A DNA stretch of 61,800 nucleotides, counting the filler, from Nemertoderma westbladi (lineage: Eukaryota; Animalia; Xenacoelomorpha): the NCBI GenBank assembly GCA_032718475.1. It is 3 parts of 3 records of this genome, joined end to end, with 100 filler letters (N's around TTAATTAATTAA, not from the genome) between each part and the next. Parts side by side here need not be neighbours in the genome. Positions count along the whole stretch, not along the records: positions 1 to 24,092 come from JAUCBJ010000007.1; 2 more parts are not named here. One strand, given 5' to 3'. How positions within the stretch are numbered: position 1 is the stretch's first letter; each line of letters starts with the position of its first letter. Shown piece after piece: positions 995 through 24,031 of the stretch. Below the pieces are notes generated by a model. That model did no database searches. It had not been told where the DNA came from and saw nothing but the letters and a program-made list of their open reading frames with translations. The translations under genes were made by a program, and so were the position numbers.

Positions 995-3661
995 TTACGG
1001 ATCTAACTCTTCCATCCGAGTCCAACCTGTTGGACAACTCAACGACCCAAGGGGTGATTCCTCCAGCAGGCAACTCTCCCACTGCCCCCCTATAGGTTCT
1101 CTAATTCTTCGCTCCGCTCTCCTTGTCAATTCGATAGGTGGTCTTTTCTCCTGTTTTGGCAAATGCTGTCTCCTATTTATGTTTCTGATCTCGTGGTCGT
1201 CCCTTGGCGGCAAAGTGCCACCCTTCAACGTGTCACCCGGCGGTATAATGCCGCCCCTGTTCTTCTCCTTAATCTTAGATGCCACCTCTGTTGGCCTCCC
1301 CCTTAATATGTGTGCTGGCATTAAAGGCTTCAACGACCCCCGTTCGTCCTTCGGTATACACGATGTCTGCCCATGTAATGCCCCCTCGCACTCTGTCGGT
1401 TCCGCGTGCGTACACAGCACGCCTCCTACTCTCCCACCTCCTTTGTCCACCATATGTTTATTCATGGGCTTCTCTGCCCCTGGTCTGATCGTCTCACATC
1501 TTCTCCCTTTCCCTCTTGTATTCTTAGTCGGCTTCCCCCTTGTCGGTATGCCTCTCAACCGGACCGGCGTCTCTTCCGGACGCTCCTCTGGACACTCCAC
1601 CAGACACTTCTCCGGTTTGTCCTCCCGACACTCCACCGTCCGCTCCTCTCCATCTCCATACCGATACTTGCTGGGACCCTTATTCCAACCCATCGTCTCC
1701 AGATCTTCTGCATCCATACCATTCTCCTCCGCCCACTCTCTTGGTGTTGCTTCTACTTCTAGCTGTCTACCACTATTGCCCATCTCTGACCTCTCCTCTA
1801 TCTCGTCGGTTCCTGGCACCATGCATCCTGAACTCTCGGACACATTGAATGGTATATTACTCTTAATTGGGCCTGTCAGTGTCCACCCGAATGGTGTCAA
1901 TATTGCCACCGGGTCACTCTGCTTGTCTTCGCCGAAGACCGTCTGCATTCTCTCGTGGGCCGTTGGGCAGTCCATGCCTACTATGATGGATACCTTCCTA
2001 ACGTCCACGTCTGGGATTGAGAAGTCAATGTTGTCCAGGAATTTGTATTGCTCAACCTCGATGTTGGTTGGCCGCCTGGCATTGATGTTGATTGACTCTA
2101 TTACTTGGATGGGGTCGATGGTTGCCCCATAATCGCATCCTGGTGCCACTGCCGCAATTGCGCACCGTCCTGTCCTCATCTCTAGGACCTCGTCTTTGCT
2201 AGAGATGGTTGTCACCGCCATCCTGCTTGGCCTCGTTCTCAACCCTATTTCTTCGGCTACCCATTCCTCAACTAATGTGAAGGCAGCTCCACTATCAACC
2301 AGCATTAGTGTTGTTACTGATCGATTGCCTTCTCCGATCACTCGCACCGGTACTACTCCAAGTAACACCGTGCCTCTTTTCTTCGCCCCTATCGTGCTCG
2401 TTGCCATCGTTTGGCCTCTCCTTTGGCCAAACTTGACCGGCTTCTCTTGGCATTCCCTGGCCTTGTGTCCACTCTTCACACATCGCGAGCAGATTTTATT
2501 GCTCGACGCGTAATCTATCTGGTCTTGCCTCGGTAGCGCCTGCCAGTACCTGCAGTTCATGGTTTTATGAAGCGCATTTGCGTGTAACTGGCATTTGCTC
2601 TTTGGGTCGTAGCCCTCTTTATACAATGCGTTGCGTATCGCAGTTGTATTCGTACCAAAGTCCCTACTATTCTTATTGACTGGATTTGGCCTACTGGACG
2701 TACTGGGGTTATGTTTATTCATGTTGTTATTGTTCCCCTGTCCGTCCCTTGATGTTGTCTTATCTTCGTTTGTCTGTGGACTTGCAGTCCCCTGCGTCGC
2801 TGCATATGGCAATGATTGCCTGAGTCTCGGTAACGCGTTCGATGTGTTGTGCTCTGGTTTTGGTCTATGGTAGTCTGTCTTTGGTCCCTTTCCCAGGCTG
2901 TCTTCGCTATAGACTGGGTCAGTTATTAGTTCAGCCTCGTAATTTAAGAAGTTTGACATTTCTTCTAAACCTGGTTCCGCACCCTTCTTATCTCGAGTGG
3001 AGAAAGCGATCTTCCTCCATTTGTTGCGCAGCCAGCTCGGTAGTGCCTGCGCTATCGTGGTGATGTTGTTGGACGCGTTGAGCTCGTATGGCGCGTCTAG
3101 CGTCTTCAGCACGATCAGCGCCTTCTCGACTTTGTTAGCAAACGTCTTAATGCTAACGGGATTATCCTGTAGGCCACCCGATGTTATGCCTCTCAGCGTC
3201 TGCCTGATGATCTTGGCCGGGTGCCCGTATTCCCTATCCAGTGCCCGCCATGCTGTCGTGAAGCCGCCCTCTATTCCCTGATATTGCCTCACGATGTCGT
3301 ATGCTGGGCCTCCCGTGTACACTTGTAGATACTTTAGGCACTCCGCCTGCGTCAAGTTTTTTGTTAGTATTTCGTTACTATACATTCGCCGAAACTGTAA
3401 GTATTCTTCCGGCCTGCTCCCATCGAATTTGAACGGTTCCACGGGTGGTAATTCGATCCTTGTTTTCAACGCATCGATCAACGTGGCCATCCCCATTGCC
3501 TGCGCTTCTAATGGATTCGACGGGTGCTGTATAGTTTCCCCTGTCTGGTGCGGTTCGTCCGTCCTATTTCTTGATCTTCTCTGACTCGGATATGTCATCG
3601 GGGGTAGCGGCCCCCTCCATATGTCTGTATCACACGACCTGTTTTCATCTAGGGGTCTCAT
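995..3661 (-). pseudogene. BEL/Pao-type gag-aspartic protease ORF, internally deleted (no RT/RNase H/integrase core)
   Basis: Motifs in the 995..3742 ORF: FKFDGSRPEEY...LKYLQVYTGGPAYDIV...AWRALDREYG (DUF1759-like Pao gag), Cys/His knuckles CQLHANALHKTMNC and CSRCVKSGHKAREC, protease LVDSGAAFTLV and PVAILTPFGWTLTGP, then LKPLMPAHILRGRP (like the Pao integrase C-terminal PLTPAHFL.GRP). The first ~27 codons (3742-3662) derive from the neighbouring element's 3' end and palindrome. Confidence 0.85.
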
Positions 3662-3704
3662 GATAGCATGGGGGGGAGTGTTAGCGGAATTGGATAAGCT
3701 AACA

Positions 3705-3713
3705 CTCCCCCCC
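3705..3713 (-). promoter_or_regulatory. Polypurine tract of copy 1
   Basis: Minus strand GGGGGGGAG immediately precedes TGTTAGC (LTR start); identical arrangement at 18526-18534. Confidence 0.8.
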
Positions 3714-4364
3714 ATGCTATCTTCCCGGTAAGAAGATAGCATCCAACTAAAGTGCGCTACAATTCCGCTGGATCCCGATCTAGCATCGGGTGTGGGGTGG
3801 GTTATTTTCTTTCTCGGAGTCGGCTTTCCAGGCCGCTCCCTATGGGTATGATGTCACTACCCTCTGGCGTCTCGTGTCGGGCCGATCGTGCGCTTCTCTC
3901 ACACAATTTTTGTTTCCCCAACACTCTCACCACTCTAACTCCGCTCTCTGACTCAACTCGCTCTTACTCTCTCCCCACACCTGAATCGCACTCTAACTCT
4001 CTCGCCAACGGCTCCTCTCACTGCCACTCTCTAAGGCCCTGACCTCTAATGCTATCCCTGTGCTATCATACTATCTACCTACTGCTTACTAACTCTAACT
4101 ATCTAACTAACTCTGCTAACTACTAACTCTCACTACTTCTAGCTCTAACTGAGAGCCTCTAACTTTCTACTGACTCTAACTCTCTACTAAGTCTAACTAA
4201 CTCCTACTAACTTTCTTGTTCTACTAACTCTACTTGACTCCTCTGAGTCTACCAACTCTGCTAACTAGCTCTACTAACTCTACTCCACTAGCTCTGCTAA
4301 CTCTACTCCACTAGCTCTGCTAACTCTACTAACTAGCTCTACTAACTCTACTCCACTCTTCTAA

Positions 4365-5305
4365 CTACGTGGCGCTTGCGGTGCCCACAACCATTCTACT
4401 ATCTGGCACCCTATGTGCTCTTCTGCTACTCAACTACCTCTCTAGCTCTACTACCTGGCACCCTATGTGCCCTCTCTGCTCTACTCTACTATCTGGCACC
4501 CTATGTGCCCTCTCTACTACACTACTACCTCTCTAACTCTACTACCTGGCACCCTATGTGCCCTCTCTACTACTCTACTCTATCTCTAACTCTCTAACTC
4601 TACTACCTGGCACCCTATGTGCCCGTCTCTACCACTCCTCTACTCCCCCTTTACGTCTCATCGCCTACACGTGACGCTCTGAGTGCCGGCAGAGTGGGTA
4701 CGTTAATTATGTGAGCTACTACTGACTCTACTAACTCTACTAACTCTCTACTAACTCTCTTAACTCTCTACTCTTCTACTTATGTGGCGCTTGCGGTGCC
4801 CACAACCACTCTACTATCTGGCACCCTATGTGCCCTTCTACTACTCAACTACCTCTACTACTAACTCCTTTTGTGCCCGGCACCTCTCGTGCCCGGCACC
4901 CACCCTAATTAACATACCCTGCTCTAACATCAAACACGTCATCACGCCCGTGCCCCATTAAGTTCAACGCATTCCCTACTAACTCTAACTACCTCTAGGT
5001 ACTACGTACCTACTAACTCTCTAACTCTAGGTACTACGTACCTACTAACTCTAACTCTGACTAGGTACTACGTACCTACTAACTCTCTAGCTCTCTCTAC
5101 TAGCTAGCGGTACTACGTACCTTCTTACTCTTACTAACTCTCTAACTAATGGTACTACGTACCCTCTAACTCTAACTAACTCTAGGTACTACGTACCTAC
5201 TAACTCTCTAACTCTAGGTACTACGTACCTACTAACTCTAACTCTGACTAGCGGTACTACGTACCCTCCTACTAACTCTTCTACTAACGGTACTACGTAC
5301 CACCC
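4365..5305. repeat. Hairpin-motif arrays (GGCAC-CCTAT-GTGCC, GTGGCGCTTGCGGTGCCCAC, GTGCC-C-GGCAC, GGTAC-TAC-GTACC) in low-complexity linker, copy 1
   Basis: Motifs directly visible multiple times in a CTA/CTCTA-rich background; homologous block at ~19095-20125. Confidence 0.85.
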
Positions 5306-5393
5306 TTTAACTAACTAACTAACTAACTAACTCTTACTACCTAACTTCTACCTACTCTATTATTTAATTATTTTCTTATTTTTAATTAAATAA

Positions 5394-7161
5394 TTATTTT
5401 ATATCTTGTGCGTGGGAAGGGCGTCTCGCCCTCATTCCCACCCCCTCAGTCCAAAACTTTGGACGACTAAAAACTCTCACGTGCCCCTTCTTCCGGTAGG
5501 CACTCTCCTGCTGCTCTCCTATACGTCCTTTAACTCTTCGCCACACTCTCTTCGGTGCCACCTTTGCTGGCCTCCCCCTTCGTATGTGCGCTGGCATTAG
5601 AGCCCTCGACGACCCCCGCTCGTCCCTCGGTATACGCGGTGTCTGCCCATGTAATGCCCCCTCGCACTGTGTCAGCCCTGCGTGTGTATGCAACACGCCT
5701 CCTTCTACTTTCCCGACTCCTTTGCTCATGGGCTTCTCTGCCCCTGGTCTAGTCCTTTCACATCCTCTCCCTTTCCAACACTCTCCGGATCTGTGTCCTT
5801 TTACCACACATCGATAACATAGTCCGTTTGCGTTTGTGTAGGCTACACGATCTCGTTTGGGCAACGCTTGCCAGTACTTGCAACTCCTGGTCTTATGGGT
5901 TCCGTCCCGATGTAATTGACATTGAAATCCTGGATTATAGCGTTTCCTGTATAGTCCTTCACGTATCGCGCTTAGGTTTATATGTACCGATTTAATGTTT
6001 TGGTTGTCTAGACTCGGCCTACTGGGTATATTGGGATTGTTTTTATTTACGGTGTTACTTTCTTTCTGTCCCTGCCACGGTGTGGCCCTGCTACCACCTA
6101 ACTGTGGACTAGCAGTCCCCTGTACGGCCGCGTGTGGTATCGACTGTCCGCACGACCTTCTCTCGTCCAAGGGGTCCGATGTTCTTGCTCCTATTGGGGT
6201 ATATTGTTGATATTGTGATGGGGGAATGTCACCCTGTCCCCCCCCACCCGGTATGTTTGGTACTGGGGTTGATGTTAATATATTGGGGCCCATACATCTA
6301 TCTCCAATAACTCCCCCCCTCCCCTGGATATATGTTATGTCCCTGTGTATTATAGTCATGCTGCTGTACCGATATAGGCCTACCTACCTCTCGCCTACCT
6401 ACCGGTATGTACTTCGCGACTTCCGGGTTTAATCCCGTCGTTCGCGCTACCCCATCGCCTACTCTATCTCTCCCAGCATGGCCTATAATAGTATGTGCAG
6501 TAAGGCCTACAGTATGTCCTGCAGTCTGCATGTGCCCTTCCGAACCGAAGTTTATTCTTCGCGAATCTCGAATCTCCCCGCGACTGCCGTACTCTCGATC
6601 GGCAGCTATATCACGTCGGGAAGTTTCCCTTCGATCCCCTATCCTGCTCTCGTCTTCGTATTTGTACGTCGTGTACCCCTCTCTCGGCGTGTGATGCATC
6701 CCACCGGATCGCATCTCTCCGGGGCGACGGCAATCTCCCGGAGTCCGACCCCACTGACTCTCCGTTCTCATCTCGACTACCGACGGCTCGCTATCCGTCC
6801 TCGCACTCCTATCGTTCGTGGCGACACCTTTTCTACTATCTTCTCTTCTTCTCTTTTCTGTGTAGTATTCCGGCTCGTGAGGTCTCTCGTCGACCTCCCG
6901 GTTAAACTCCACTGTTCTTCTTCCCTCTTCTGGTCGGGCTCGACGCTTCGTCTGCCCTCTCGCGACGTCAACCTGCTTCTCTCTGCTCGATCGCACGCCG
7001 CTGGGGATACTCGCAATCCCCCTATTACTCTCCGTCGCCGGGTGTTGCGGTTTACCTGATTCGGCCCGCGCATTATCCGCTGACGGCTGTGGGACACTCT
7101 CTGCCCCCCCTCTCTCTCTACTAATCTCTCGCGGTGGGGTGCCCGCAGCCCCCCCCCCCAC
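5394..7161 (-). pseudogene. Frameshifted continuation of the copy 1 ORF ending in gag zinc knuckles fused to an integrase-tail remnant
   Basis: ORFs 6298-7161 and 5394-6359 overlap at poly-C runs; CQLHRDGTHKTRSC / CYRCVVKGHRSGEC knuckles and ALMPAHIRRGRP match the 995..3742 ORF, but the gag core and protease are missing. Confidence 0.7.
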
Positions 7162-7450
7162 CCGCCACTTCTAACTTCACTATCTCTTACTACACTTCTA
7201 CATCCTTCTTGTGGGGCATTCTCTGCCCCCCCTCTCTCGCCACTAATCTTATGTGGTGGGGCGCCCGTAGCCCCCCCCCACTCGCCACTTCTAACTTCAC
7301 TACCTCTTGCTACACTTCTACACCCCTCTTGTGGGGCATTCTCTGCCCCCCCTCTCTCGCCACTAATCTTTCGCGGTGGGGTGCCCGTAGCCCCCCCCCC
7401 CACCCGCCACATCTAACTTCACTATCTCTTACTTCGTCTCTACACCCCTC
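7095..7450. repeat. Three ~120-bp tandem repeats with poly-C runs inside copy 1
   Basis: CTCTGCCCCCC..CTAATCT..GTGGGG..GCCACTTCTAACTTCACTA recurs at ~7100, 7221 and 7341; also three copies at ~21865-22220. Confidence 0.85.
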
Positions 7451-9226
7451 TCTAGTCGACGCACTGTCTCTACTGCGGCCGGGTCTATTCACCCCCGCCT
7501 CTCTCTCTACTACTGCGTGGCCTACCAGGCCCACCTCGGGTTGGCTCAACCGCGCCACTTCCTGCCTACTAACTACGTGGCCTACCAGGCCGCCGTCGGG
7601 TTGGCTCAGCCCTGCCACTTCCTGCCTACTAACTACGTGGCCTACCAGGCCGCCGTCTGCCGGGCTATGCACGTTTGACACGCTCACATTAATAGCACCA
7701 TTCCCAATATTATTTGTTAAATCAATTAAATTGTTAGAATTTGAAACGAGATTTAAATTAATTAAATTAGAATTATTATTATTTTCAAAATTTAAATTAA
7801 TATTCGAATTATTTGAATTAATGTTATTATTTGAATTTAAATTTAAATTACTACTACCCGGTAAAATATTATTTGCTGCAATAAAGGGATTAGGATTATC
7901 TACTACGGTACTATTAATATTAACTATTTCTAACGTACTACTACTACCCCCCCCGCCCGTGCGGCTACACCAGTTCTGGTTTTCTCGCTCGGTGCTTATA
8001 ACTGGGGTCTCACTCTCTGATAGTTCCAACCGCGCCAGTTCTAGTCGGCGCCGCTTCAGTTTGGCTTGATATTGCGCAAGCCTGCCTAGCCGGGCACGCA
8101 AATCATCCCGCTCACGCTCTGCCTCTATCTCTCTCTCTATGCACTCTCGGAAACTTTGCTCGGCCAACTCGGTATCTCTCGCAGTCGCAACCATCTCAAA
8201 CCGCCTCACCGGCTCGCTCTCTACTCTCATCTCCCGCTCTCTACACTCCTTGACTCTCTCTCTACACACCTCGACTCTCTCTCTATCCTCCCTTGCCCAC
8301 TCTCTTTCTCTCTCTATAACGGCGGCATTATCCCTCAGTTGCCGCTCTGTGCTATTCAGCTTCGCCGCTACCATTTCTAATTCATACGTCAGATTTATTT
8401 TCAGCACCCTTCTTTCTTTCGCGGAGGATGTAGCAGACTTATCGGTTGCGACGGACTCCCGTCGCCCCTCCGTCCTACCAACTTTCCCCCGCCTCCCGGA
8501 ACTCCCTCCGACCGACGAGACCGAATCCTCGGAGTTAACCTCGGATTCGCCCTCCCCAGGTCTCTTGCAACCCACTAATTTTATATCCTGGGCATCGACT
8601 AAGTATGGCCCTATGTACACTATACTAGGCCCCATACCCCTACGTTCCCATAGCCCAAACAGTACGAAGGCAACTCCCCACGCCCTCAACTCTGCTAGTT
8701 CTCTCTGCCCAGAACACACTAGGTGATCAAAGTATCTGTTCGACTCACCTAGTCGCTTTCTCAGTCTCACCTCGTCTATCTTCGCCCCCTCCTCGGCCTC
8801 CTTTAGTAGTTCCCGGGTCGCGAGGTAGGCCCGTCGAAGTCGATCAGAAACCCCGACGTCCTCGTCGCCGACCTCTCCTCCATCTCTCCGGGTCCGACGT
8901 CGTACCGACGGCCCCACCGTCGCCGTTCCGGTGGACCGTTCGTCGTCCTCTGCCTGTGGCTGACCGGTGACATCGGTACGTCGACCCTCGCTCCGCGTCG
9001 ACTCGTCTTTCTCTTCTCCTCCCGACTCGTCTCCTCTACTCGACTCGCTCTCTCCTGGTAGACGACCCCCCACATCTTGGTTCGCCGGGTTGCTCGTTAT
9101 CGACGTGGTCGACGTAGCATCGACCGGCGTCGTGGGTCCGTATCGTCTCGCCGTGGCCTCGCGGATCGTTAGATCGTCGTCCGGGGTCCGCGGCGGTGTC
9201 GTTCCTTTCTCTCCTATTCGGCTCAT
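7310..9226 (-). CDS. LTR-element ORF A: charged coiled-coil, Asn-rich tract and 20-aa repeats (putative gag N-terminal region)
   Basis: Open frame 9286-7310 with first ATG at 9226 (MSRIG); homologous open frame in copy 2 (22139-24031); E/R-rich helical segment, NLNLNSNNN tract, DGGLVGHVVSRQEVAGLSQP repeats. Confidence 0.6.
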   Translation of the reverse strand: MSRIGEKGTTPPRTPDDDLTIREATARRYGPTTPVDATSTTSITSNPANQDVGGRLPGESESSRGDESGGEEKDESTRSEGRRTDVTGQPQAEDDERSTGTATVGPSVRRRTRRDGGEVGDEDVGVSDRLRRAYLATRELLKEAEEGAKIDEVRLRKRLGESNRYFDHLVCSGQRELAELRAWGVAFVLFGLWERRGMGPSIVYIGPYLVDAQDIKLVGCKRPGEGESEVNSEDSVSSVGGSSGRRGKVGRTEGRRESVATDKSATSSAKERRVLKINLTYELEMVAAKLNSTERQLRDNAAVIEREREWAREDRERVEVCRERVKECREREMRVESEPVRRFEMVATARDTELAEQSFRECIEREIEAERERDDLRARLGRLAQYQAKLKRRRLELARLELSESETPVISTERENQNWCSRTGGGGSSSTLEIVNINSTVVDNPNPFIAANNILPGSSNLNLNSNNNINSNNSNINLNFENNNNSNLINLNLVSNSNNLIDLTNNIGNGAINVSVSNVHSPADGGLVGHVVSRQEVAGLSQPDGGLVGHVVSRQEVARLSQPEVGLVGHAVVEREAGVNRPGRSRDSASTREGCRDEVRDSEVRCGGWGGGLRAPHRERLVAREGGQRMPHKRGVEV

Positions 9227-9277
9227 CTTTGTCTTTGGTGTCAGTCTATCACTGTCAGGGCAGCTGGGCGGATCTGA

Positions 9278-9286
9278 TTCTGTCAC
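9278..9286 (-). promoter_or_regulatory. Primer-binding site of copy 1, self-complementary to LTR 9465-9473
   Basis: + strand TTCTGTCAC directly abuts the LTR and is the exact reverse complement of GTGACAGAA at 9465-9473; no TGG tRNA-type PBS. Confidence 0.75.
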
Positions 9287-9816
9287 TGTGACGGGATCTA
9301 CGGATCCCGGTTTATCCGTTTGGGTTTTCTATCCACGCGTCCCCGCCGTGTGTGAAAGGTAAAAGAGTTCTGGTGTTGGGTAATATGTATAAAGGTATAA
9401 TAGTCTGACAGTTGATATAATATAGTATGACACAACAGGTAATATATAATGGCGGTAGCGGACGGTGACAGAAGTCCCCGTTCCACCCTACTGATCTGAC
9501 TGAGTAAACTGAATGAATGATTACAGGTTACTGGTTATATTGCACGGTGGCCTTATTGCTACTCAATCGATGCCTTTCCCCCCTCTGATTGGTTGATACC
9601 CTTGTTGGCACCCTTTGGAGTGTTTCCCTTCACTCCCTGTGTTCTCTCTCGGTTAGGGGTTTGGCCCCTGACCCCTATTGTGTGTGTCTCCTTTGGGGCC
9701 TATTGTCCCCGTTTACTGGGCTGACACGAGGTTGATTGGTAATCAACCTCGTGCTCCCAATATTGCTTTATGGCTCACTCTGTGGGTTTGTGTTAGCGGA
9801 ATTGGATAAGCTAACA
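9287..9816 (-). repeat. 5' LTR of copy 1 (530 bp)
   Basis: Starts TGTGACGGGATC and ends GCTAACA on the + strand; homologous to 15473-18525 (minus the RTE insert) and to 24032-24092. Confidence 0.9.
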
Positions 9817-9863
9817 ACCATAGGTATATTATAGGCACTAGGGCTCAAGTTAAGCGTGACCAA

Positions 9864-11048
9864 GTGATGGCTGTAAAACAGCAACAGTACCCGAACCGAG
9901 AAGTTATTTCTCAACTATGTAGTAACTCTAGTTCCGACACCGAAGAGTTAACGCCCGAGATCGGATCAAGGAGGGAAGAAGTGGTTTATCCTGACCCACT
10001 TTTGATTCTTCCTGGGGCAGTGCTCACTAGAGTACTTATAGCCGTAGAAGAACATCAAGCAGACTGGATGAGAAATAAGAGATCGACCAGGGACAGTTAC
10101 GCCGGATACCCTCTGGAAGATCTAAGGTTTATTGTAGAGACTCAATGGAACTTCCTCGGACCCGGACTCCTGTTTAACTTATCGGAAGCAGCCTGGGAGG
10201 ACTTATATCAAATGGGCATAGTTTGAGACACCTGAGATCCCACTGTATGGAAGAGGTCAACAGCCGGATATGTCCAAGGATTCTTCAACTCCGTAGGACG
10301 AATAGAAATACAGTTATTCCAACAACATCAGGGACCTCAAGAGCAGGGATAACTGCTTTACCAAGTGAGAGAAAGGATATTGAGGATCAGATTAATCCTT
10401 TCAGCCTTTGAAGAGGCCTCAAAGAGAAGTCAAGATACATCACTGTAGGTGGCAGTAAAGACTTGGTTCCAACGAGTGAATGCTAAAGTCCAGGGAACAA
10501 CACAATGGAAGGCTCAGCTAACTGAACGCATAGCCTGTGGAGAATCAACCGATGCAACTTTCTCCCATGTGGAAGGCGAGGCGGTATCCGGAAAACCTCA
10601 GAAGAAGGATGCTATTGATATCTATCTGTCGGATTATCAACGATTTATAGGTAACAAGGAGCTAAGGATACGCCTAACTGGACTTCCCCCCAATAGTGAA
10701 GAAGCCATATTCATTTTGGACTCCTTAGATGCAGAGATATTAGCTGCGGAGCAGGCTAAATTTGATGAAAGCATTCTCATCGTGATGGACAAAGAAGAAC
10801 AAATAAAGAAAGACCGGAAATGAGCTGCAACCGCGGAAGCTGAATTAAAAGCTGCAGCGGCAGTGGCAGAAGCTGATAAAAGAGCAGCGGCGGCAACGGC
10901 AGAAGCTGATAGAAAGGTGGCAGCGACGGAAGTTAACCGAAAGGCGGCGGCGGCAGAAGTAGAACGTAAAGCTGCAACAGTAGAAGCTGAATGGAGGGCA
11001 GCTGAAGCAAAAGTACAACTAGATTTGTTCACTATAGTTAATTTGTAA
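9864..11048 (+). pseudogene. Degraded ~390-codon ORF of unknown (probably transposon) origin with Ala/Glu/Lys-rich 11-aa repeat coiled-coil tail
   Basis: ORFs 9864-10226, 10449-10823 and 10863-11048 share one frame; reading through shows five internal stops and no frameshift; AAAATAEADRK-type 33-bp repeats at ~10824-11010. Confidence 0.55.
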
Positions 11049-13329
11049 AGTTTAGTCTAAATTCGATAAATCTTTTGGTTAATTATGTTAAATATACTGC
11101 AAACTCAGAACATGTCGACATCTCGAACATCTCGAATAGCCAAATGCTTCGGAGAATGGCTGCCTATACCTTTAGCCCACAGCAATGCAAGGGGGAGGAA
11201 TGCCCGCATCGCATAAGGGAACCTACACCATTCGCCCGCACCCACCTAGACCATGATTCGACAGCCTGAAAATGCCCATGCCCGAGGTAAGACTTTGTTC
11301 ACCACCTTTGCCCGCTGTAAGAGTGAAGTGTGACAACATCCTGGGATGCTGTAAAGTTTAGGAGTTAAATATCTCGGATCCAGACAGAAACCCCACGGTT
11401 GATCCGCATCGCTTACAGGTGTGAGCTGGTGCTGTTTGCTAGTACGTGCGAGTACACTAGGTACAAATAGCACGCTTTATAATTTGGTGACGGCCAACTA
11501 CCGGTTAGCACTGTGGGCTTTACTGTCAACTGATCTGTCTGGGTTAGACATATTTACTCAGGCAAAGGGCAGATTTCTGCTTCTGGCACAGATTTTAGCT
11601 AAAGGGCGGTTTAGTAACGTTCTACCGCACCCTTGCCACGTACTGATAGGTATTTCCTGCATACCACCGCGGCAACAATGTTTAGAACAAATTTATATAC
11701 CAGATCAGCTAAAGTATGGTAGCAAATTAACACCCTATTATCTATTTCACAATCAGAGTCAGGTATCAGTGCCGATCACGGGCGAAGTTACTAACACCGT
11801 AATTGCCCAATCGAGTTGTGAATATAGGAGGAGAGAGCCCCCTTTTGACATCAGTTCTTAAGTATTGCGTCAACAGCGCACGACTAGCTTATTCTAGTAG
11901 CTAGTGCCCAATTTATTTTGTAAAAGTCACCAAAACCTAGTATTATAGCGATACCCCAAAATTTTGCTTTACCATAACGCACACACACATGCGTGTCTTA
12001 AGATTGTTATTCTACTGATATTATACCCCTTTTGACTGCTTTTCTGTCGGCAATATTGTTTTACGCTATTGTTATTAACCCACTGGCTCGTTATACCCAT
12101 ATAAATCGCACTGCCACAAGTCTACAGTAGCTTAGGTCCATTAGCGGTAGTTAGGATTCGCTACGCGGGGATTGTTTTCTCACTAGTTTGGTCTGTTTCT
12201 GTAGACTGTATTTCTGCCTCACCACCGGTTAGGGACTGGTCACCCTGATTGTCAAGTTAGCCTGGGCAATTGATTTGCCCAAGTTTAGGGGAAGACATCA
12301 GGCACCGATCTCGCCAGTAGCAGTTTGTGTACTTTGGTATCTATTATTTTTGGCCCGACGTTGGGATTTTACAGTAGATATTGTACATCGGTATTGGATT
12401 CTTCAGTAAGCGATGTTTTATAATTTTATGTGTTAGTAGAATTGTAAAATGATAGTTTTAGTATTTGATTAGCTATATGCTAATTTCGTAACTTATTTTG
12501 TCTTAGGCTGTGTGTGTGCGGTGTTACCTTTTTTCGGTAGTGGAAAAAGAACATAAGGTTTAAAGACCAATTTGTATCGGTACCTAGGAAAATTTTTTCG
12601 TAGAGTAGTCCGTAAAACTCTTACCTTCGATTTTTCATGCCTCATTTCTGGACTGCCTCGAGGATCAGGCCATTTTTAGCAAGTTTGGGAGGTAAAAGAT
12701 TTGTCCACGACGCTGGAAACGGAACAGTTCTCATCCAGTTTGTATCTGGGGATCTGTACGACTGGAAGATCAAAGAAATGTAAGTTTTACGACTCGTGTC
12801 GTTTAAACTTAGAGCACAGTATTACTCTAAATTTGAGGGTTCCACTGTCTAAATTTATGCATTGGTTATTGATACTGTTACATTGTGATAATGGATTCTA
12901 GGTTTCTTTCACTGGTAAATCCCTATAAATGTTGAAGTAATAAAATTTAATTACAGAACCATAGTTCGAAGATCAGCATTATTCATACCAGTCATTGCTT
13001 AGAAATTCTACTGGATAATATTGTTAATCTGACTTAAGTTGTTTAGGTTGAACAAAGTCTATATAGTAAACAACAGGTCCTCCAAAGAGTGTGTCTTTGG
13101 TATATTATATCATGAAGGGGGAAGTTAGATTCACTGCATAAATGCAGTTTATCTAACTTCCCCCAAATATCCACTGTTGAATAAAATTGAAGCGATATAT
13201 TAAGTCCGAAAAGGTTCGAGTTTTTTAATAAATTGTGTGGTCCATTTGTTATCTGATCTCTATTTATTGTTTAAAATTCATTTAAGATCACACTGGTTTT
13301 TAGAATATTACAACCTTATTTTTTATTAA

Positions 13330-15470: not shown

Positions 15471-15698
15471 TTTGTGACGGGATCTACGGATCCCGGTTTA
15501 TCCGTTTGGGTTTTCTATCTACGCGTCCCCGCCGTGTATATGAAAAGGTTCGTTTAGAGTTCTGATGTTCGGTAATATGTAGAAAGGTATAATATAGTTG
15601 ATATAGCAGACATGGATAACTGGTTACCGGTAGATAAGTACAGAAGTATTACACGTGATGGCGGTAGCGGACGGTGATAGAAGTCACCGTTCCACCCT

Positions 15699-18136
15699 TC
15701 CACCCTATCTCTGGAAATGGATTGTTTTCGGCTGGAACCCAGTTCAAGAAGCGAACTGGAAAGCTATGGACTCATAGTGGACCCAGTGGTCACAAGTCCC
15801 AGATAGACCATATTCTGTTTCGTAGGAAATACAGGAGCTCTATACAAGACTGTAATGCATTTACACTTCGACCCTTCTCCAGTGATCACCGCCTTATTGT
15901 GGCCAAGGTAAGACTTAGTCTGCGTGCTAGCAGAACAACGAAATCTGCCTTGCCACGGCATGACTGGTCCTCTCTGTTGCAACAGCCAAGTGTGAGATCC
16001 AGCTTCACACTACAGCTGAGCAACAGGTATGAGGCTCTTGCCTCTGAGGCGGCAGATCACTGTGAGGGCTATACTGCCTTTACGGAAGCAGTTAAGTTAG
16101 CAGCTGCAGAAACAGTTCCTGTATACCCTCGAAACAGGAAAAGGGCCCCCTGGACTGACAACAAAATTCAGAAGTGCCGAAATGACCTTCATAAGGCGCA
16201 GAAAGAGTCCCGACTCAAACAGACTACAGCGGCCAAGAATGCAGTTAAAGCTGCATCTAGGTCCCTGAACAGGCAGTACTCTGTTAATCTACAGGAGCTA
16301 ATAAACCAACAGGTTGATGCCATCAATGATGCTGACGACAGCAGGCAATCATCCCAGGCATGGAAATCGATCAATCTGCTTACTGGGCGGAAAAGCCAAC
16401 CAACCACCAAGGTTAAGGCTGAATCACCAGCCGATCGCCGCAATGGTTGGAAAGCCCACTTTGAAAAGCTCCTCAATAATGACAGGGTATTGCCTGATAA
16501 CTTTATAGAAGTAAAAGTGTCTGAGTCTGTACTCCCAGATATTCCCATTGGCGATATCTCCTTTGCAGAAGTGAAGGCTGCTGCAAAGAGCATTAAGACC
16601 AATCGTGCCAGTGGAGTAGATGGTGTTCCCCCTGAGGTCTTTAAAATACCTGAGTGTTTAAAGCTCATCTATCCCATCATAGTAGACATGTACCGTACAA
16701 CAAGAGTCCCACAAAAAATGAAAACAAATAAGTTGGTGCCAGTCCCCAAGAAGGGCAACCTAACACTCTATGGTTCTTTTCGGGGAATCTCATTGATCTC
16801 GATTGCTGCAAAACTATACAATAGAATTCTATTAAATCGCATCAGGGATCCCATTGAGAGACTGCTACGTGGAAATCAGAATGGGTTCCGTAAAGGTCGT
16901 GGGACCATGGAGCCCATTTTGGCACTTAGAAGGATAATTGAAGAGTTATCAAAAAAGAAAGACAGGCATCTGGCTGTTATCTTTGTTGACTTCTTCAAGG
17001 CCTTTGATTCAGTCTCTCGCTCACGTATGTTCAGCATACTTTCATTATATGGGATTCCTGATGAAATTATTGCAGCAATCAGATCAGTATACGATGGTTC
17101 GACAACATTTGTGTCTACTGTTGACGGTGACACAGAACCATTTGAAGTGTTATGGGGCGTACTCCAAGGAGACACACTTGCACCATTCTTGTTCATTATT
17201 GTGGTTGACTATGTTCTACGCATGTCCTTAGATCATCATAATGATGATGGGGTGATGATAACTCCACCTACTGGCTCCAGAAGTCGAGGAAATCCTGCCA
17301 AGTACCTAACTGATCTAGACTTTGCTGATGACTTAGGAGTACTCTCAGAATCATTAGAGGGAGCCCAGCGGCTCCTCAGCTCATTAGAACATGCTGCTTC
17401 TAGTGTTGGTCTTTTTATTAACTCCAGAAAGACCAAAATTCTGACAGTTAACTTTGAAAGTCCTCAGCAAGTCTCTGATCGGATGAGCATAAGCTCAAAG
17501 GATGGTATACTTGAGCATGTGGACGACTTCTGTTACCTGGGATCATGGATCCGGAAGTCAGGTGAGGACCTTCGAATACGTAAGGGAAAGGCATGGGCAG
17601 CCTTGAATAGGCTTTCCAGGATTTGGAAGTCACCTAGAATTAATCGGAAACTTAAGGTCCGATTATTTAGAGCAGCAGTAGTTCCAGTACTCCTCTACGG
17701 GAGTCCATGCTGGGCTCTAACTGCTGAGGACACCAAATCTCTGGATGGCACATTCACAAGAATGCTACGCCGGGTACATTGTGTCAAGTACAATGCACAC
17801 ATCTCCAACCAGACACTATATAACATTGGAGGTGTCTCATTGGTTCCCCCAAGCTTGACACTAGAACAAAATCGCCTCCGCTTTGCAGGACATTGCTTTC
17901 GCCGTGAGGACCAGCCAGTGCATAATCTTGTACTTTGGCAGCCTCATGGAGTGAATAAGCATGGTGGACAGCCCATGACTTTCTTGAGACGCATCTTAAA
18001 GGACACTGGCCTTAAAGATGCGGATGATCTAGCAAATGTCATGGGTGATAGGGAGTTGTGGCGGTGCAATTTTGTTGACAAGCCGGCACAGCATTCTTAA
18101 AAATGCAGCTGCAATGCAGCATGCCGATCCTAGTAG
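15699..18136 (+). mobile_element. 5'-truncated RTE-clade non-LTR retrotransposon with 74-bp target-site duplication
   Basis: Flanked by identical 74-mers 15625-15698 and 18137-18210; very short 3' UTR ending TAGTAG; encodes APE C-terminus and RT. Confidence 0.9.
15710..18100 (+). CDS. RTE endonuclease (C-terminal part)-reverse transcriptase
   Basis: QIDHIL...SSDHRLIVAKVRL (APE end), PVPKKGN...FRGISLISIAAKLY, QNGFRKGRGT, FVDFFKAFDSV, GVLQGDTLAPFLF, DLDFADD, FCYLGS, RLRFAGHCFRR; uninterrupted frame. Confidence 0.92.
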   Translation, partial: SGNGLFSAGTQFKKRTGKLWTHSGPSGHKSQIDHILFRRKYRSSIQDCNAFTLRPFSSDHRLIVAKVRLSLRASRTTKSALPRHDWSSLLQQPSVRSSFTLQLSNRYEALASEAADHCEGYTAFTEAVKLAAAETVPVYPRNRKRAPWTDNKIQKCRNDLHKAQKESRLKQTTAAKNAVKAASRSLNRQYSVNLQELINQQVDAINDADDSRQSSQAWKSINLLTGRKSQPTTKVKAESPADRRNGWKAHFEKLLNNDRVLPDNFIEVKVSESVLPDIPIGDISFAEVKAAAKSIKTNRASGVDGVPPEVFKIPECLKLIYPIIVDMYRTTRVPQKMKTNKLVPVPKKGNLTLYGSFRGISLISIAAKLYNRILLNRIRDPIERLLRGNQNGFRKGRGTMEPILALRRIIEELSKKKDRHLAVIFVDFFKAFDSVSRSRMFSILSLYGIPDEIIAAIRSVYDGSTTFVSTVDGDTEPFEVLWGVLQGDTLAPFLFIIVVDYVLRMSLDHHNDDGVMITPPTGSRSRGNPAKYLTDLDFADDLGVLSESLEGAQRLLSSLEHAASSVGLFINSRKTKILTVNFESPQQVSDRMSISSKDGILEHVDDFCYLGSWIRKSGEDLRIRKGKAWAALNRLSRIWKSPRINRKLKVRLFRAAVVPVLLYGSPCWALTAEDTKSLDGTFTRMLRRVHCVKYNAHISNQTLYNIGGVSLVPPSLTLEQNRLRFAGHCFRREDQPVHNLVLWQPHGVNKHGGQPMTFLRRILKDTGLKDADDLANVMGDRELWRCNFVDKPAQHS

Positions 18137-18525
18137 TACCGGTAGATAAGTACAGAAGTATTACACGTGATGGCGGTAGCGGACGGTGATAGAAGTCACC
18201 GTTCCACCCTACTGAGCTGACTGAGTAAACTGAATAACTGATTGCATCGACCGGTAATATATATTGCACGGTTTGGCCTTGTTACAGTACCTAGTCGATG
18301 CTCCCCCCCTGATTGGCTAATATCCCTGTTGGCACCCTTTGGAGTGTTTCCCTTCACTCCTTGTGTTCTCTCTCGGTTAGGGGTTTGGCCCCTGACCCCT
18401 ATTGTGTGTTTCTCCTTCCCACTTTATTGGGGTGACGCGAGATTGGGTAACCAACCTCGTGGCCCCCAATATTGCTTAATGGCTCACTCTATGGGTTTGT
18501 GTTAGCGGAATTGGATAAGCTAACA

Positions 18526-18534
18526 CTCCCCCCC
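18526..18534 (-). promoter_or_regulatory. Polypurine tract of copy 2
   Basis: + strand CTCCCCCCC directly abutting LTR end GCTAACA (18525). Confidence 0.8.
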
Positions 18535-19094
18535 ATGCTATCTTCCCGGTTGGAAGATAGCATCCACCTAAAGTGCGCTACAATTCCGCTGGATCCCGAT
18601 CTAGTATCGGGTGTGGGGTGGGTCTATTTTCTTTCGGAGCCGGCTTTCCAGGCCGCTCCCTATGGGTATGATGTCACTACCCTCTGGCGTCTCGTGTCGG
18701 GCCGATCGTGCGCTTCTCTCACACAATTTTTGTTTCCCCGGCACTCTCACCACTCTAGCTCCGCTCTCTAACTCGACTCCCCAGTCTTACTCTCTCCCCA
18801 CACCTTAATCGCACTCTAACTTCTCTCCATACTCCTCTCACTATCTCCTCTCTACCACTCTCTAAGGCCCTAATCTCTAATGCTACCCCTGTGCTATCAT
18901 ACTATCTACCTACTACTTACTTGCTAACTATCTAACTATCTTACTTTCTACTAACTCTCCGACTCTAACTAGCTCTACTTAGTCTAACTAACTCCTACTA
19001 ACTCTCTACTTCTACTAACTCTACTTGACTCCTCTAAGTCTACCAACTCTCTAGCCCTTTAACTAGAACTCCCTAACTCTACCCACTCTTCTAA

Positions 19095-20125
19095 CTACGT
19101 GGCGCTTGCGGTGCCCACAACCACTCTACTGTCTACTTCCTTCTACGTGGCGCTTGCGGTGCCCACAACCACTCTACTATCTGGCACCCTATGTGCCCTT
19201 CTACTACTCAACTACCTCTCTAACTCTACTACCTGGCACCCTATGTGCCCTCTCTACTACCTCTAACACTCTAACTCTACTACTTGGCACCCTATGTGCC
19301 CTCTCTACTACTCTACTCTCTGGCACCCTACGTGCCCTCTCTACTACCTTAACACTCCACTCTACTACCTGGCACACTATGTGCCCTCTCTACCACTCTA
19401 CTCTATCTCTAACTTACTTCCTTTACATCTACTCCCTTTACATCTACTCGCCTACACGTGACGCTCTGAATGCCAGCAGAGTGGGTACGTTAATCATGTG
19501 AACTACTACTAACTCTTACTAACTCTACTAACTCTCTACTAACTCTTACTAACTCTACTACTAACTCTACTACTAACTCTCTACTAACTCCTTTTGTGCC
19601 CGGCACCTCTTGTGCCCGGCACCCACCCTAATTAACATACCCTGCTCTTACATCAAACACGTCATCACGCCCGTGCCCCACTAAGTTCAACGCATTCCCT
19701 ACTAACTCTAACTACGTGGCGCTTGCGGAGCCCACAACCACTCTGCTTACTACTTCCTACGTGGCGCTTACGGTGCCCACAACCCTCTACTGCTCTACTC
19801 CTTTCTACGTGGCGCTTATGGTGCCCACAACCCTCTACTGCTCTACTAACTTTCTAACTAACGGTACTACGTACCCTCTTACTACTCTAACTCTCTCTAC
19901 TAGCTAACGGTACTACGTACCCTCTCACTAACTCTAACTCCACTAACTAACGGTGCTACGTACCCTCTAACTACTCTCTAACTAACGGTACTACGTACCC
20001 TCTAACTCTTACTCTAACTAGCGGTACTACGTACCCTCTTAACTAACTAACTAACTAACTCTCTCGGTACTACGTACCTCCTAACTAACTAACTAATTAA
20101 CTCTCCCGGTACTACGTACCTCCTA
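19095..20125. repeat. Hairpin-motif arrays in low-complexity linker, copy 2
   Basis: Same four stem-loop motifs as 4365-5305 with different copy numbers. Confidence 0.85.
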
Positions 20126-20171
20126 ACTAACTTCTACCTACTTTATTATTTAATTATTTTATTGTTTTTAA

Positions 20172-21948
20172 TTAAATAATTATTTTATATTTTATGCGTG
20201 GGAAGGGCATCTCGCCCTCATTCCCACCCCCCTCAGTCCAAAACTTTGGACGACTAAAAACTCTCACGTGCCCCTTCTTCCAGTAGGCACTCTCCTGCTG
20301 CCCTCCTATACGTCCTCTAACTCTTCGCCACACTCTCTTCGGTGCTACCTTTGCTGGCCTCCCCCTTCGTATGTGCGCTGGCATTAAAGCCCTCGACGAC
20401 CCCCGATCGTCCCTTGGTATACACGGCGTCCGCCCATGTAATGCCCCCTCGCACTGTGTCAGTCCTGCGTGCGTATGCAACACGCCTCCGACTCCTTTAT
20501 GTTTGCTCATGGGCCTCTCTGCCCCTGGTTTAGTCCTTTCACATCCTCTCTCTTTCCAACACTCTCCGGATCTGTGTCCTTTTACCACACATCGATGACA
20601 TAGTCCGTTTGCGTCTGTGTAGGCTACACGATCTCGTTTGGGCAACGCTTGCCAGTACTTACAACTCCTGGTCTCATGGGTTCCGTCCCGATGTAATTGA
20701 CATTGGAATCCTGGATTATAGCGTTTCCTGTATAGTCCTTCACGTATCGCGCTTAGGTTTATATGTACCGATTTAATGTTTCGATTGTCTAGACTCGGCC
20801 TACTGGGTATATTGGGATTGTGTTTATTTATGGTGTTATTTTCTTTCTGTCCCTGCCACGGTGTGGCTCTGCTACCAGCTAACTGTGGACTAGCAGTCCC
20901 CTGTATGGCCGCGTGTGGTAGCGACTGTCCGCACGACCTGTTCTCGTCCAGGGAGTTCGATGTTCTTGCTCCTATTGGGGTATATTGTCGATATTGTGAT
21001 GGGGGAATGTCACCCTGTCCCCCCCCCCCCGGCCAGTATGTTTGGTACTGGGGTTGATGTTAATATATTGGGGCCCATACGTCTATCTCCAATAACTCTC
21101 CCCTCCCCTGGATACATGTTATGCCCCTGTGTATTATAGTCATGCTGCTGTACCGATATAGGCCTACCCACTTCCTGCCTACCTACCGGTATGTACTCTG
21201 CGGCTTCCGGGTTTAATCCCGTCGTTCGCGCTACCCTATCGCCTACTCTACCTCTCCCAGCATGGCCTATAATAGTATGTGCAGTAAGGCCTACAGTATG
21301 TCCTGCAGTCTGCATGTGCCCTTTCGAACCGAAGTTTAATCTTCGCGAATCTCGAATCTCCCGGCGACTACCGCACTCTCGATCGGCAGCTATATCCCGT
21401 CGGGAAGCTTCTCTCCGATCCCCTCTCCTGTTCTCGACTTTGTATTGGTATGTCCTGTACCCCTCTCTTGGCGTGTGGTGCGTTTCTCCGGGGCGACGGC
21501 AATCTCCCGAAGTTCGACCCCACTGACTCCCTAACTCCATCTCTACTATCGACGGTCCGCTATCCGTCCTCACACTGCTATCGTTCGTGGCGACACTTCT
21601 TCTACTATCTTCTCTTCTTCTCTTTTCAGTGCAGTATTCCGGCTCATGAGATCTCTTGTCGACCTCCCGGTTAAACTCCACTGTTCTTCTTCCCTCTTCT
21701 GATCGGGCTCGACGCTTCGTCCGCCCTCTCGCGACGTCAACCTGCCTCTCTCTGCTCGATCGCACGCCGCTGGGGATACTCGCAATCCCCTTATTACTCC
21801 CCATCGCCGGGTGTTGCGGTTTACCTAATTCGGCCCGCGCATTATTCGCCGACGCCTGTGGGACACTCTCTGCCCCCCCCTCTCTCGCTACTAATCTCTC
21901 GCGGTGGGGTGTCCGTAGCCCCCCCACACCCGCCACTTCTAACTTCAC
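20172..21948 (-). pseudogene. Frameshifted continuation of the copy 2 ORF with gag zinc knuckle remnant
   Basis: ORFs 21010-21948 and 20172-20645 homologous to copy 1 6298-7161 and 5394-6359; CHRCVVKGHRSGEC knuckle. Confidence 0.7.
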
Positions 21949-22138
21949 TATCTCTTACTGCACTTTTGCGTTCCTCTTGTCGGACACTCTCTACCCCCCC
22001 TCTCTCGCCACTAATCTTCTGTGGTGGGGCTCCTGTACCCCCCCCCCCCACTCGCCACTTCTAACTTCACTACCTCTTGCTACACTTCTACACCCCTCTT
22101 GTGGGGCATTCTCTGCCCCCCCTCTCTCGCCACTAATC

Positions 22139-23965
22139 TTATGTGGTGGGGCGCCCGTAGCCCCCCCCCCCCCACTCGCCACATCTAACTTCACTATCTC
22201 TTACTTTACTACTACACCCCTCTCTAGTCGACACACTGTCTCTACTACGGCTGGGTCTATTCACCCCCGCCTCTCTCTCTACTACTGCGTGGCCTATCAG
22301 GCCCACCTCGGGTTGGCTCAACCCCGCTACCTCCTGCCTACTAACTACGTGGCCTACCAGGCCCCCGTCGGGGTTTCTCGCCCCTGCCACTCTCTGCGAA
22401 CTAACTGCGTGGCCTGCCAGGCCCCCATCGGGGTTATGCACGTCCGACATGCTCATATTAATAGCACCATTCCCAATATTATTTGTTAAATCAATTAAAT
22501 TGTTAGAATTTGAAACGGGATTATTATTTAAATTATTTAAATTAGAATTATTATTATTTTCAAAATTTAAATTATTATTCGAATTATTTGAATTATTCTG
22601 AATATTTGAATTAATGTTATTATTTGAATTTAAATTTAAATTACTACTACCAGGTAAAATATTATTTCCTGTAATAAAGGGATTAGGGTTATCTAATACG
22701 GTACTGTTAACATTAATTACTTCTAACGTACTATTACTACCCCCCCCGCCCGTACGGTTACTATGCGCACTGTACGTGTACCGCATGCTCTGTTCCTTTT
22801 CCTCTCGCTCTGTGCTTATAAGTGGGGTCTCACTCTCTGATATTTCCAACCGCGCCAGTTCTAGTCGGCGCTGCTTTAGTTTGGCCCGATATAGCCCAAG
22901 CCCCCCCAGCCGGACACGCAAACCACCCAGCTCACATTCTTTCTCTATCTCTCTCTCTCTGCACACTCGCAAATCTCGCTCGGCCGTCTCTCTCGCAAGC
23001 ACCTCAGACCGCCTCGCCGGCTCGCTCTCTATTCTCCTCTCCCGATCTCTATGCTCCTCGGCCTTCTCTCTATCCTCCCTTATCAACTCTGATAATGCGG
23101 TTTCCTCCCTCAGTCGCCCCTCCAACTGTTTCCGCTCTGCCGCCGCCATTTTTAATTTATACTCTAGATTTTTTCTCCGCACCCTTCTTTCTTTTTCGGA
23201 GGATGTAGCAGACTTATCGGTTGCGACGGATTCCCTCCGCCTTCCCGTCCTACTAACTTTCCCCCGCCTCCCAGAACTTCCTCCGACCGACGAGGCCGAA
23301 TCCTTGGGGTTAGCCTCGGATTCGCCCTCCTGTGGTCTCCTCCAACCCACTAATTTTACTCCCCGGGCATCGACTAAGTATGGCCCTATGTACACTACGC
23401 TAGGTTCCATACCCCCACATTCCCATAGTTCAAACAGTTCGTTGGCAACTCCCCTCGCCCTCTCCTCGGCTAGTTCTCCCTGCCCAGAATGCAATAGGTA
23501 ATCAAAGTATCTGTTCGACTCACCTAGTCGTCTCCTCAGCTTCACCTGGTCTATCTCAGCCCCTCCTCTAGCTTCCTTCAGTTGCTCCCGGGTCGCGGCG
23601 TAGGCCCGTCGAAGTCGATCAGAAACCCCGACGTCCTCGTCGCCGACCTCTCCTCCATCTCTCCGGGTCCGACGTCGTACCGGCGGCCCCACCATCGCCG
23701 TTCCGGTGGGCCGTCCGTCGCCCTCGGTCTGTGGCTGACCGGCGACATCGGTACGTCGACCCTCGCTCCGCGTCGACTCGTCTTTCTCCCTTTCGACTCC
23801 CGACTCGTCCTCTCTTTGTAGACGGCCCCCCTCATCTTGGATCGCCAGATGGCCCGTTATCGATGGGTCCAGCGTCGTGGGTTGATGCCGTCTCGCCGTG
23901 GCCTCGCGGATCGTTAGATCGTCGTCCGGGGTCCGCGGCGGTGTTGCTTCTCCTCCTCTACTCAT
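22139..23965 (-). CDS. LTR-element ORF A, copy 2
   Basis: Open frame 24031-22139, first ATG 23965 (MSRGG); aligns along its length to 7310-9286 with in-frame indels. Confidence 0.6.
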   Translation of the reverse strand: MSRGGEATPPRTPDDDLTIREATARRHQPTTLDPSITGHLAIQDEGGRLQREDESGVEREKDESTRSEGRRTDVAGQPQTEGDGRPTGTAMVGPPVRRRTRRDGGEVGDEDVGVSDRLRRAYAATREQLKEARGGAEIDQVKLRRRLGESNRYFDYLLHSGQGELAEERARGVANELFELWECGGMEPSVVYIGPYLVDARGVKLVGWRRPQEGESEANPKDSASSVGGSSGRRGKVSRTGRRRESVATDKSATSSEKERRVRRKNLEYKLKMAAAERKQLEGRLREETALSELIREDREKAEEHRDRERRIESEPARRSEVLARETAERDLRVCREREIEKECELGGLRVRLGGLGLYRAKLKQRRLELARLEISESETPLISTEREEKEQSMRYTYSAHSNRTGGGGSNSTLEVINVNSTVLDNPNPFITGNNILPGSSNLNLNSNNNINSNIQNNSNNSNNNLNFENNNNSNLNNLNNNPVSNSNNLIDLTNNIGNGAINMSMSDVHNPDGGLAGHAVSSQRVAGARNPDGGLVGHVVSRQEVAGLSQPEVGLIGHAVVEREAGVNRPSRSRDSVSTREGCSSKVRDSEVRCGEWGGGGYGRPTT

Positions 23966-24022
23966 CTTGTCTTCTTTGGTGGCTGGCAGCCACAGTCTGT
24001 CAGGGCAGTTGGTTGGATCTAG

Positions 24023-24031
24023 TTCTATCAC
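24023..24031 (-). promoter_or_regulatory. Primer-binding site of copy 2, self-complementary to the LTR
   Basis: + strand TTCTATCAC abuts the LTR and is the reverse complement of GTGATAGAA at 15674-15682 / 18186-18194. Confidence 0.75.

Follow-up and report, generated by a model that had tools for sequence, protein, structure and literature searches.

A non-autonomous BEL/Pao-derived LTR element of Nemertoderma westbladi that likely primes reverse transcription with its own RNA

Introduction

How does an LTR retrotransposon begin reverse transcription when its primer site does not look like the complement of a tRNA? This question is raised by an LTR family in a 61,800-nt stretch of the Nemertoderma westbladi assembly GCA_032718475.1 (the window; three parts joined by filler), where the nine nucleotides directly next to the 5' LTR are complementary to a segment inside that same LTR. 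Such priming is known from Tf1, whose primer consists of the first 11 bases of its RNA and is released by an RNase H cut (PMC7175516). Tf1-like self-priming is proposed for Tj1 of S. japonicus (PMC4600332), self-priming is predicted for Tcn1 and for the copia TAR lineage (PMC6317226), and fungal elements are listed as self-priming (PMC6934838, PMC3601003). Belpaoviridae are described as having an 18-nt primer site for tRNA-Arg or tRNA-Gly, with the host tRNA as the primer (ICTV, PMC8742986).

The analysis given here points to a non-autonomous BEL/Pao element whose reverse transcription is likely primed by a piece that would be cut from its own RNA at the 5' end. Own-RNA priming is likely in these elements because the primer site matches the element's own LTR and because most of the intact relatives with a fixed LTR end do likewise.

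Results and Discussion

Two BEL/Pao-derived copies in the window

Two copies of the element lie on the minus strand of the window and are 83% alike (3678-9347 versus 18499-24092). Their parts are as follows.

9287-9816 (-): 5' LTR of copy 1, 530 bp, with TGT...ACA ends
3705-9277 (-): internal region of copy 1, with degenerate gag ORFs and tandem repeats; no pol detected
3705-3713 (-): polypurine tract (PPT) of copy 1, abutting the LTR start
3678-3704 (-): 3' LTR stub of copy 1, 27 bp, after which the PPT region recurs in inverted orientation at 3662-3685
24032-24092 (-): remainder of the copy 2 5' LTR, 61 bp; the gap cuts off the rest
18137-18525 (-): upstream piece of the copy 2 3' LTR, including the partner 9-mer at 18186-18194
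18526-18534 (-): PPT of copy 2, abutting the LTR start
15473-15698 (-): downstream piece of the copy 2 3' LTR, including the duplicate partner 9-mer at 15674-15682
15699-18136 (+): 5'-truncated LINE (RVT_1) inserted into the copy 2 3' LTR and flanked by a 74-bp duplication

The LTR of copy 1 is 76-84% identical to both pieces of the copy 2 3' LTR, and what remains of the copy 2 5' LTR shares 98.4% identity with its own 3' LTR. Both primer-binding site (PBS) and PPT had been described as touching the LTR with zero spacer, and the coordinates bear this out, with the PPT abutting the LTR start. As for the insertion ends at which a target-site duplication would be sought, the 3' LTR end of copy 1 is missing and the 5' end of copy 2 falls in the gap. 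Public contigs show the LTR family to be numerous and diverse; 1,667 contigs of run X1 align to the LTR region.

Two rearrangements were seen at these LTRs. The LINE at 15699-18136 has an open RT frame of 810 aa and an identical 74-bp duplication, and it is a recent insertion adjoining the primer segment of the copy 2 3' LTR. At 3662-3721, a perfect inverted copy of the PPT region joins the 27-bp LTR stub of copy 1 to a related element; this junction looks like the product of a snap-back template switch at the LTR terminal hairpin.

Two open reading frames have BEL/Pao features.

5394-6383 (-): ORF of copy 1 with a BEL/Pao-type zinc-knuckle remnant (E 6.7e-10 and 2e-09 with two BEL profiles)
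995-3853 (-): ORF running into the related element, with DUF1759, zinc knuckles and an aspartic protease, without RT

The initial annotation held that the LTR family carries BEL/Pao gag. This stands for the BEL-type zinc-knuckle remnant, which is found in both copies (E 7e-10 to 4e-09), but DUF1759 and the protease occur only in the neighboring ORF 995-3853. That ORF belongs to the related element, which is joined to copy 1 through the 27-bp LTR stub and a 24-bp inverted repeat. It has 47% identity to ORF 5394-6383 and 47-48% identity to the knuckle region of copies 1 and 2. Its relatives are BEL/Pao proteins at 22-35% identity, and Peptidase_A17 is present in 14 of its 15 long relatives (>850 aa, from rank 7 on). 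Protein searches gave no close relative: a search at longer lengths gave none, another gave two at 22% identity, and the best among representatives had 29%. Viral contigs yielded nothing.

No trace of pol was seen when 274 peptides from window positions 1-29000 were compared with a full-length BEL profile, which matched only gag and protease, and none of the 12 ORFs scanned with Pfam has a gypsy domain. Metagenome contigs did not show the LTR-end pattern, and the searches gave no autonomous partner with the LTR ends of these copies. Copies 1 and 2 are non-autonomous and BEL/Pao-derived.

The primer site and its complement in the LTR

The sites on which the proposal of self-priming rests are the following.

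9278-9286 (-): PBS of copy 1, zero spacer, without TGG
9465-9473 (-): exact 9-nt complement of the copy 1 PBS; the predicted self-primer 3' end is 9465
24023-24031 (-): PBS of copy 2, a 9-mer with one change relative to copy 1

In copy 1, TTCTGTCAC is found at 9278 only and GTGACAGAA at 9465 only, while the copy 2 site TTCTATCAC is found at 24023 and its partner GTGATAGAA at 15674 and 18186. The exact complementarity of 9278-9286 and 9465-9473 that had drawn attention to the locus is thus confirmed at every position. The same is true of the missing TGG tRNA site, which is absent from the first 20 nt past the LTR end in either copy. A search for tRNA genes gave none, either in the window or in the 29 of 80 metagenome loci reported.

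Covariation of the two 9-mers had also been claimed. Both partners did change in copy 2, by one base each, and this amounts to one compensated base pair in two copies. Because the partners at 15674 and 18186 lie within one 74-bp duplication, they do not add a second instance, and the covariation is one base pair, counted once.

An exact 9-mer match appeared in 15 of 20,000 Markov-1 resamples of the LTR, and in 39 of 20,000 when the offset was left free between 0 and 3. None of 34 control windows further down the leader reached 9 nt. Nine bases are few and the pair was picked after looking, so chance complementarity deserves a hearing. It would have to account for a match that is rare even with a free offset, for the paired change, for a duplex that extends beyond the 9-mer and for the same pattern in relatives (both described below). 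We consider chance largely refuted and extremely improbable.

Variants in public contigs were taken from a table of substitutions at a frequency of at least 1%, which leaves 24 indel rows outside and misses variants at 9276-9277 that are listed in another table. The sole listed primer-site variant is 9282 G>A, which makes up 17-25% of depth in three runs (two samples) and is not listed in a fourth. This variant retains a G-U pair with the LTR 9-mer. At 9469 the public contigs have no listed mirror change with a frequency of at least 1%. Since the G-U pair is kept and the variant table is incomplete, the missing mirror is weak but real evidence against tight mirroring.

Could half of a tRNA be the primer instead? 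We take the first seven primer-site bases to complement the anticodon loop of tRNA-Asp(GUC), where the copy 2 change would keep a G-U pair; the common variant 9282 G>A is likewise wobble-compatible, with no LTR mirror listed. However, this pairing covers 7 bp only and leaves both the LTR-side change and the outer helices unexplained, and the many different sites of the relatives each track their own LTR. Half-tRNA priming does have a precedent in copia lineages, and it is reported there from copia only (PMC6317226). A tRNA half therefore seems a very unlikely primer here.

Predicted transcript start and primer length

Three motifs upstream of the 9-mer were read as promoter elements.

9588-9592 (-): CCAAT box, in both copies
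9535-9539 (-): TATA-like box, 29 nt before the predicted start
9507-9512 (-): initiator-like TCAGTT, predicted +1 at 9510; same place in copy 2

We assume that these motifs act as a promoter and predict +1 at 9510. They occupy the same places in both copies. As the predicted start lies 37 nt upstream of the 9-mer, the predicted primer is about 46 nt long. The strict Tf1 picture has the primer at the extreme 5' end of the RNA. For the window family this is probably wrong in detail, both because the promoter motifs place the start 37 nt further upstream and because bases upstream of the 9-mer are also predicted to pair with the leader. Contigs of run X6, which are RNA by guess only, cover 9517-9816 alone and give no evidence either way on the transcript.

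RNA structure around the primer site

Folding and duplex prediction outlined the following structures.

9482-9493 (-): upstream arms predicted to pair with the leader (9488-9482 and 9493-9490), from duplex prediction
9261-9272 (-): leader arms of the outer helices, from duplex prediction and read from the alignment
9451-9464 (-): predicted 5' side of the R-U5 stem, from folding
9338-9347 (-): predicted 3' side of the R-U5 stem, from folding
9293-9308 (-): U5 hairpin adjoining the LTR end, also at 15479 and 24038
9327-9336 (-): U5 mimic of the primer site, a competing partner of the 9-mer, variable among family copies

Prediction extends the pairing beyond the 9-mer, to about 22 interrupted base pairs between the 30 nt ending at 9465 and the first 30 nt of the leader, with an energy of -29.8 kcal/mol in copy 1 (0 of 300 shuffles as strong) and -21.2 kcal/mol in copy 2 (2 of 300). 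In the copy 1 register, six of the first 26 leader bases differ in copy 2: one is part of the compensated pair, two convert U-G to U-A, a fourth disrupts a pair, and the remaining two fall in an internal loop. The two U-G to U-A changes and the broken pair are the three changes in the leader arms at 9261-9272. The R-U5 stem and the U5 hairpin, which had been described as conserved, are identical in copies 1 and 2. Tf1, as Lin and Levin reportedly found, also has an R-U5 stem adjoining the primer helix and a U5 stem-loop.

The U5 mimic at 9327-9336 continues the R-U5 stem and wins the 9-mer in the predicted folds (ViennaRNA). Copy 1 had primer-PBS pairing probabilities of 0.04 and 0.21, and copy 2 of 0.00 and 0.04; with other end points the range was 0.04-0.56. 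Forcing the pair costs 1.5-3.8 kcal/mol. The R-U5 stem is present in all predicted folds and the primer-PBS helix is a minority state. As modeled, this preference for the U5 mimic counts against self-priming in the window family. As a clade-wide feature the mimic is only partly supported, with 5 of 11 elements beating their resamples; copy 1 does not (123 of 500). No substitutions are listed in 9283-9309, 9335-9369 and 9437-9505, compared with 11 in 9310-9334, the stretch that holds the mimic. This pattern is consistent with constraint on the primer site and less of it on the mimic.

Our preferred reading of the primer as a fragment of the element's own RNA would run as follows. Transcription would start near 9510, and the first ~46 nt are predicted to fold onto the leader through the outer helices and the 9-bp core, with the R-U5 stem adjoining. 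In doing so, the 9-mer would exchange the U5 mimic for the primer site. On the model of Tf1, a BEL/Pao reverse transcriptase supplied in trans would next use its RNase H to cut after 9465 and release the primer. The first base of the LTR end would be where DNA synthesis begins, in keeping with the zero spacer. A known self-cutting ribozyme is not indicated, as Rfam gave no family of note in 9150-9900 (a single match, E 0.58).

The primer might also be self-derived and act in trans or uncut, for example as a short LTR transcript ending after 9465. Taken as a two-strand reaction, the duplex is strong; the fold in cis is disfavored, and the family's abundance in run X1 points the same way. Yet the R-U5 stem that adjoins the primer end is identical in both copies, a Tf1-like arrangement for a cut in cis, and the LTR contains neither AATAAA nor ATTAAA. 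We think a trans or uncut primer improbable and retain the cut in cis.

Hairpins were also seen at the other end of the element. One of 11-12 bp stands directly before the PPT (3714-3769; 18535-18590), its loop differing between the copies. A 10-nt segment upstream of it complements the U3 start, which is itself a 7-bp hairpin. The PPT and U3 hairpins possibly form a second switch, at the plus-strand primer.

Self-complementary primer sites in BEL/Pao relatives

Relatives were collected by a metagenome scan with a 13-protein BEL alignment, and the best 80 of 523 confirmed loci were analyzed. For 12 of the 80, the LTR end could be set from a direct repeat; the ends of L015 and L077 were adjusted by eye. 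In 10 of these 12, splicing of a predicted GT-AG intron within the LTR would create an exon-exon joint complementary to the primer site across 11-15 nt, at an offset of 2-3. One of the other two has a contiguous 11-nt LTR match (L071) and one has a TGG site (L049). Where only the LTR start was fixed (6 loci), four match a splice joint and two do not.

Introns of this kind, 66-164 nt long, were predicted in L001, L002, L007, L010, L012, L015, L029, L031, L037, L040, L042, L045, L059 and L077, and the joints of all 14 complement the primer sites over 11-15 nt. Splicing of these LTR introns is predicted from sequence. One apparent mismatch, between acceptor-side bases and the primer site, was noted by eye in L036. 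The self-matching loci comprise about eight distinct sequences, because L001 and L002 belong to a single family and one primer is common to L010, L015 and L040.

Several controls bear on these matches. In a 12 x 12 cross matrix, self-matching sites fit their own LTR best or tie with an LTR of the L010/L015/L040 trio. Downstream control windows fell below the observed match length in all nine self-matching loci examined, and unspliced controls were 6-17 kcal/mol weaker (8/8). The primer-PBS helix of the relatives had a pairing probability of 0.73-1.0 in seven of nine. When 64 loci were scanned blind, matches of at least 11 nt numbered 12 spliced and 4 contiguous, compared with 5 in 320 shuffles; the contiguous matches of L057, L058 and L061, whose LTR end is unverified, were left out of the count. 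By pattern, the sole TGG-type sites among the 80 loci are those of L047 (1-60) and L049 (55-85), 5 nt past the LTR end.

Five of the relatives (L002, L010, L045, L071 and L077) have unbroken polyproteins of 2,016-2,058 aa with DUF1759, Peptidase_A17, an integrase zinc finger and DUF5641. The proposal of a self-priming BEL/Pao lineage is thus supported: relatives with intact polyproteins carry self-complementary primer sites spelled in different letters. Its competitor was a chimera that combined Tf1/sushi cis signals with a captured BEL gag and was mobilized by a gypsy helper. The zero spacer and the contiguous primer are indeed Tf1-like, and no BEL partner with the window LTR was found. Nevertheless, intact BEL/Pao elements show the signature, including the contiguous L071; by eye, the PPT surroundings are similar to those in L025, the nearest BEL row; and gypsy-type pol was not detected in the Pfam-scanned ORFs. 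A gypsy helper is unnecessary, since several self-matching relatives encode intact BEL polyproteins. With no positive support, the chimera is very improbable.

Another alternative accepts the pairing as real and makes it an RNA switch for packaging, dimerization or translation, with something else as the primer. Two near-equal predicted folds would suit such a switch, as would a U5 mimic that exceeds resamples in 5 of 11 elements. But in every self-matching element the match lies 0-3 nt from the LTR end, the position required of a primer, and it occupies the spot of the TGG site seen in L047 and L049. Moreover, the copies differ from one another in the mimic region and hardly at all in the primer site. 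A switch without priming is unlikely in our judgment, and we keep to the pairing as a primer.

The window family departs from its relatives in having a 9-nt core and no spacer, compared with a core of 11-15 nt and a spacer of 2-3 nt. A splice-made primer was considered for the window family and rejected: the joint match is absent in copy 1 and 7 nt long in copy 2, versus 9 contiguous nucleotides. A quick gag-protease tree (48 rows) puts the window protein among the BEL rows, on a long branch (2.42; best identity 27%) and in a starred group whose other three rows are L025, L051 and the splice-type L028; L025, the nearest row, has no recognizable 5' LTR. In an RT-RH FastTree of 43 rows, splice-type rows occur in both halves and the TGG pair L047/L049 lies inside one half. 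Both trees are midpoint-rooted and contain no named references, and we assign neither a lineage name nor an order of states from them.

These relatives suggest a broader reading, to which we would give a little less than an even chance. A large BEL/Pao branch would do without tRNA priming and most of its members would splice their primer from the LTR, while the window family would have an intron-less, zero-spacer arrangement in which a long capped primer is held off by the U5 mimic until the switch. Already in our preferred reading, the window family would be an intron-less form of a signature that most tested relatives would build by splicing of the LTR intron. A splice-made primer would tie priming to host splicing.

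Comparison with known systems

The window family shares an LTR-complementary primer site and the lack of a tRNA site with Tf1/Tf2 (Schizosaccharomyces pombe), Tj1, Tf1/sushi and Tcn1 (PMC7175516, PMC4600332, PMC6317226). It is likely Tf1-like in using its own RNA, judging from the sequence. Compared with the 11-nt 5'-terminal primer of Tf1, the primer predicted here is about 46 nt, with a 9-nt core, outer helices and a competing U5 mimic. Unlike Tf1/sushi elements, which belong to Ty3/gypsy, the window element has a BEL/Pao-type gag and no gypsy pol, and most of its relatives, by contrast, would require splicing for the match.

With Belpaoviridae, the copies have in common the TG...CA LTR ends, the PPT before the 3' LTR and BEL-type zinc knuckles, with DUF1759 and protease in the neighboring relative. 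They differ in lacking pol (PR-RT-RH-IN) and the 18-nt tRNA primer site, the latter being absent also from 11 of the 12 relatives with a fixed LTR end. The window family is not a member of Tf1/sushi; it is BEL/Pao-derived and departs from Belpaoviridae in the tRNA-site feature. The copia TAR lineage (Houba, Osr-1) is alike in that self-priming outside Tf1/sushi was predicted from sequence, and differs in comprising plant copia elements of another superfamily. Self-priming therefore has a precedent for recurring (PMC6317226).

In four BEL/Pao surveys, a term search found primer sites unmentioned in the main text (PMC554778, PMC3118150, PMC6238403, PMC8556966). Among the papers that literature searches listed, titles and the beginnings of abstracts contained no report of BEL/Pao self-priming; supplements, subscription journals, Repbase or GyDB could hold one. 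If the signature is functional, self-priming would extend to a third LTR superfamily and may be frequent in one of its branches. Elements of this type would likely evade tRNA-fragment control and go unseen by annotation tools that need a tRNA site.

Other features of the window

Directly past the gap, 24149-26638 holds a second LINE-type RT ORF (RVT_1, E 2.9e-36). Next to the copy 1 LTR, 9819-11050 (+) contains broken ORF pieces with an alanine-rich, coiled-coil-like repeat; it has no significant match to a BEL profile and is perhaps a remnant of another element's gag. At 56067-57119 (+), where Pfam gave no match, the C-terminal part appears similar to an exon of MICU1, a protein of mitochondrial calcium uptake. 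The gaps at 24093-24192 and 54342-54441 each consist of two runs of 44 N around a 12-bp linker. Much of the window is satellite-rich, with long tandem arrays at 26971-27408, 29091-37758, 40497-50920 and 57316-60804, whose periods are about 54, 54-55 and 57 bp, plus a shorter variable unit.
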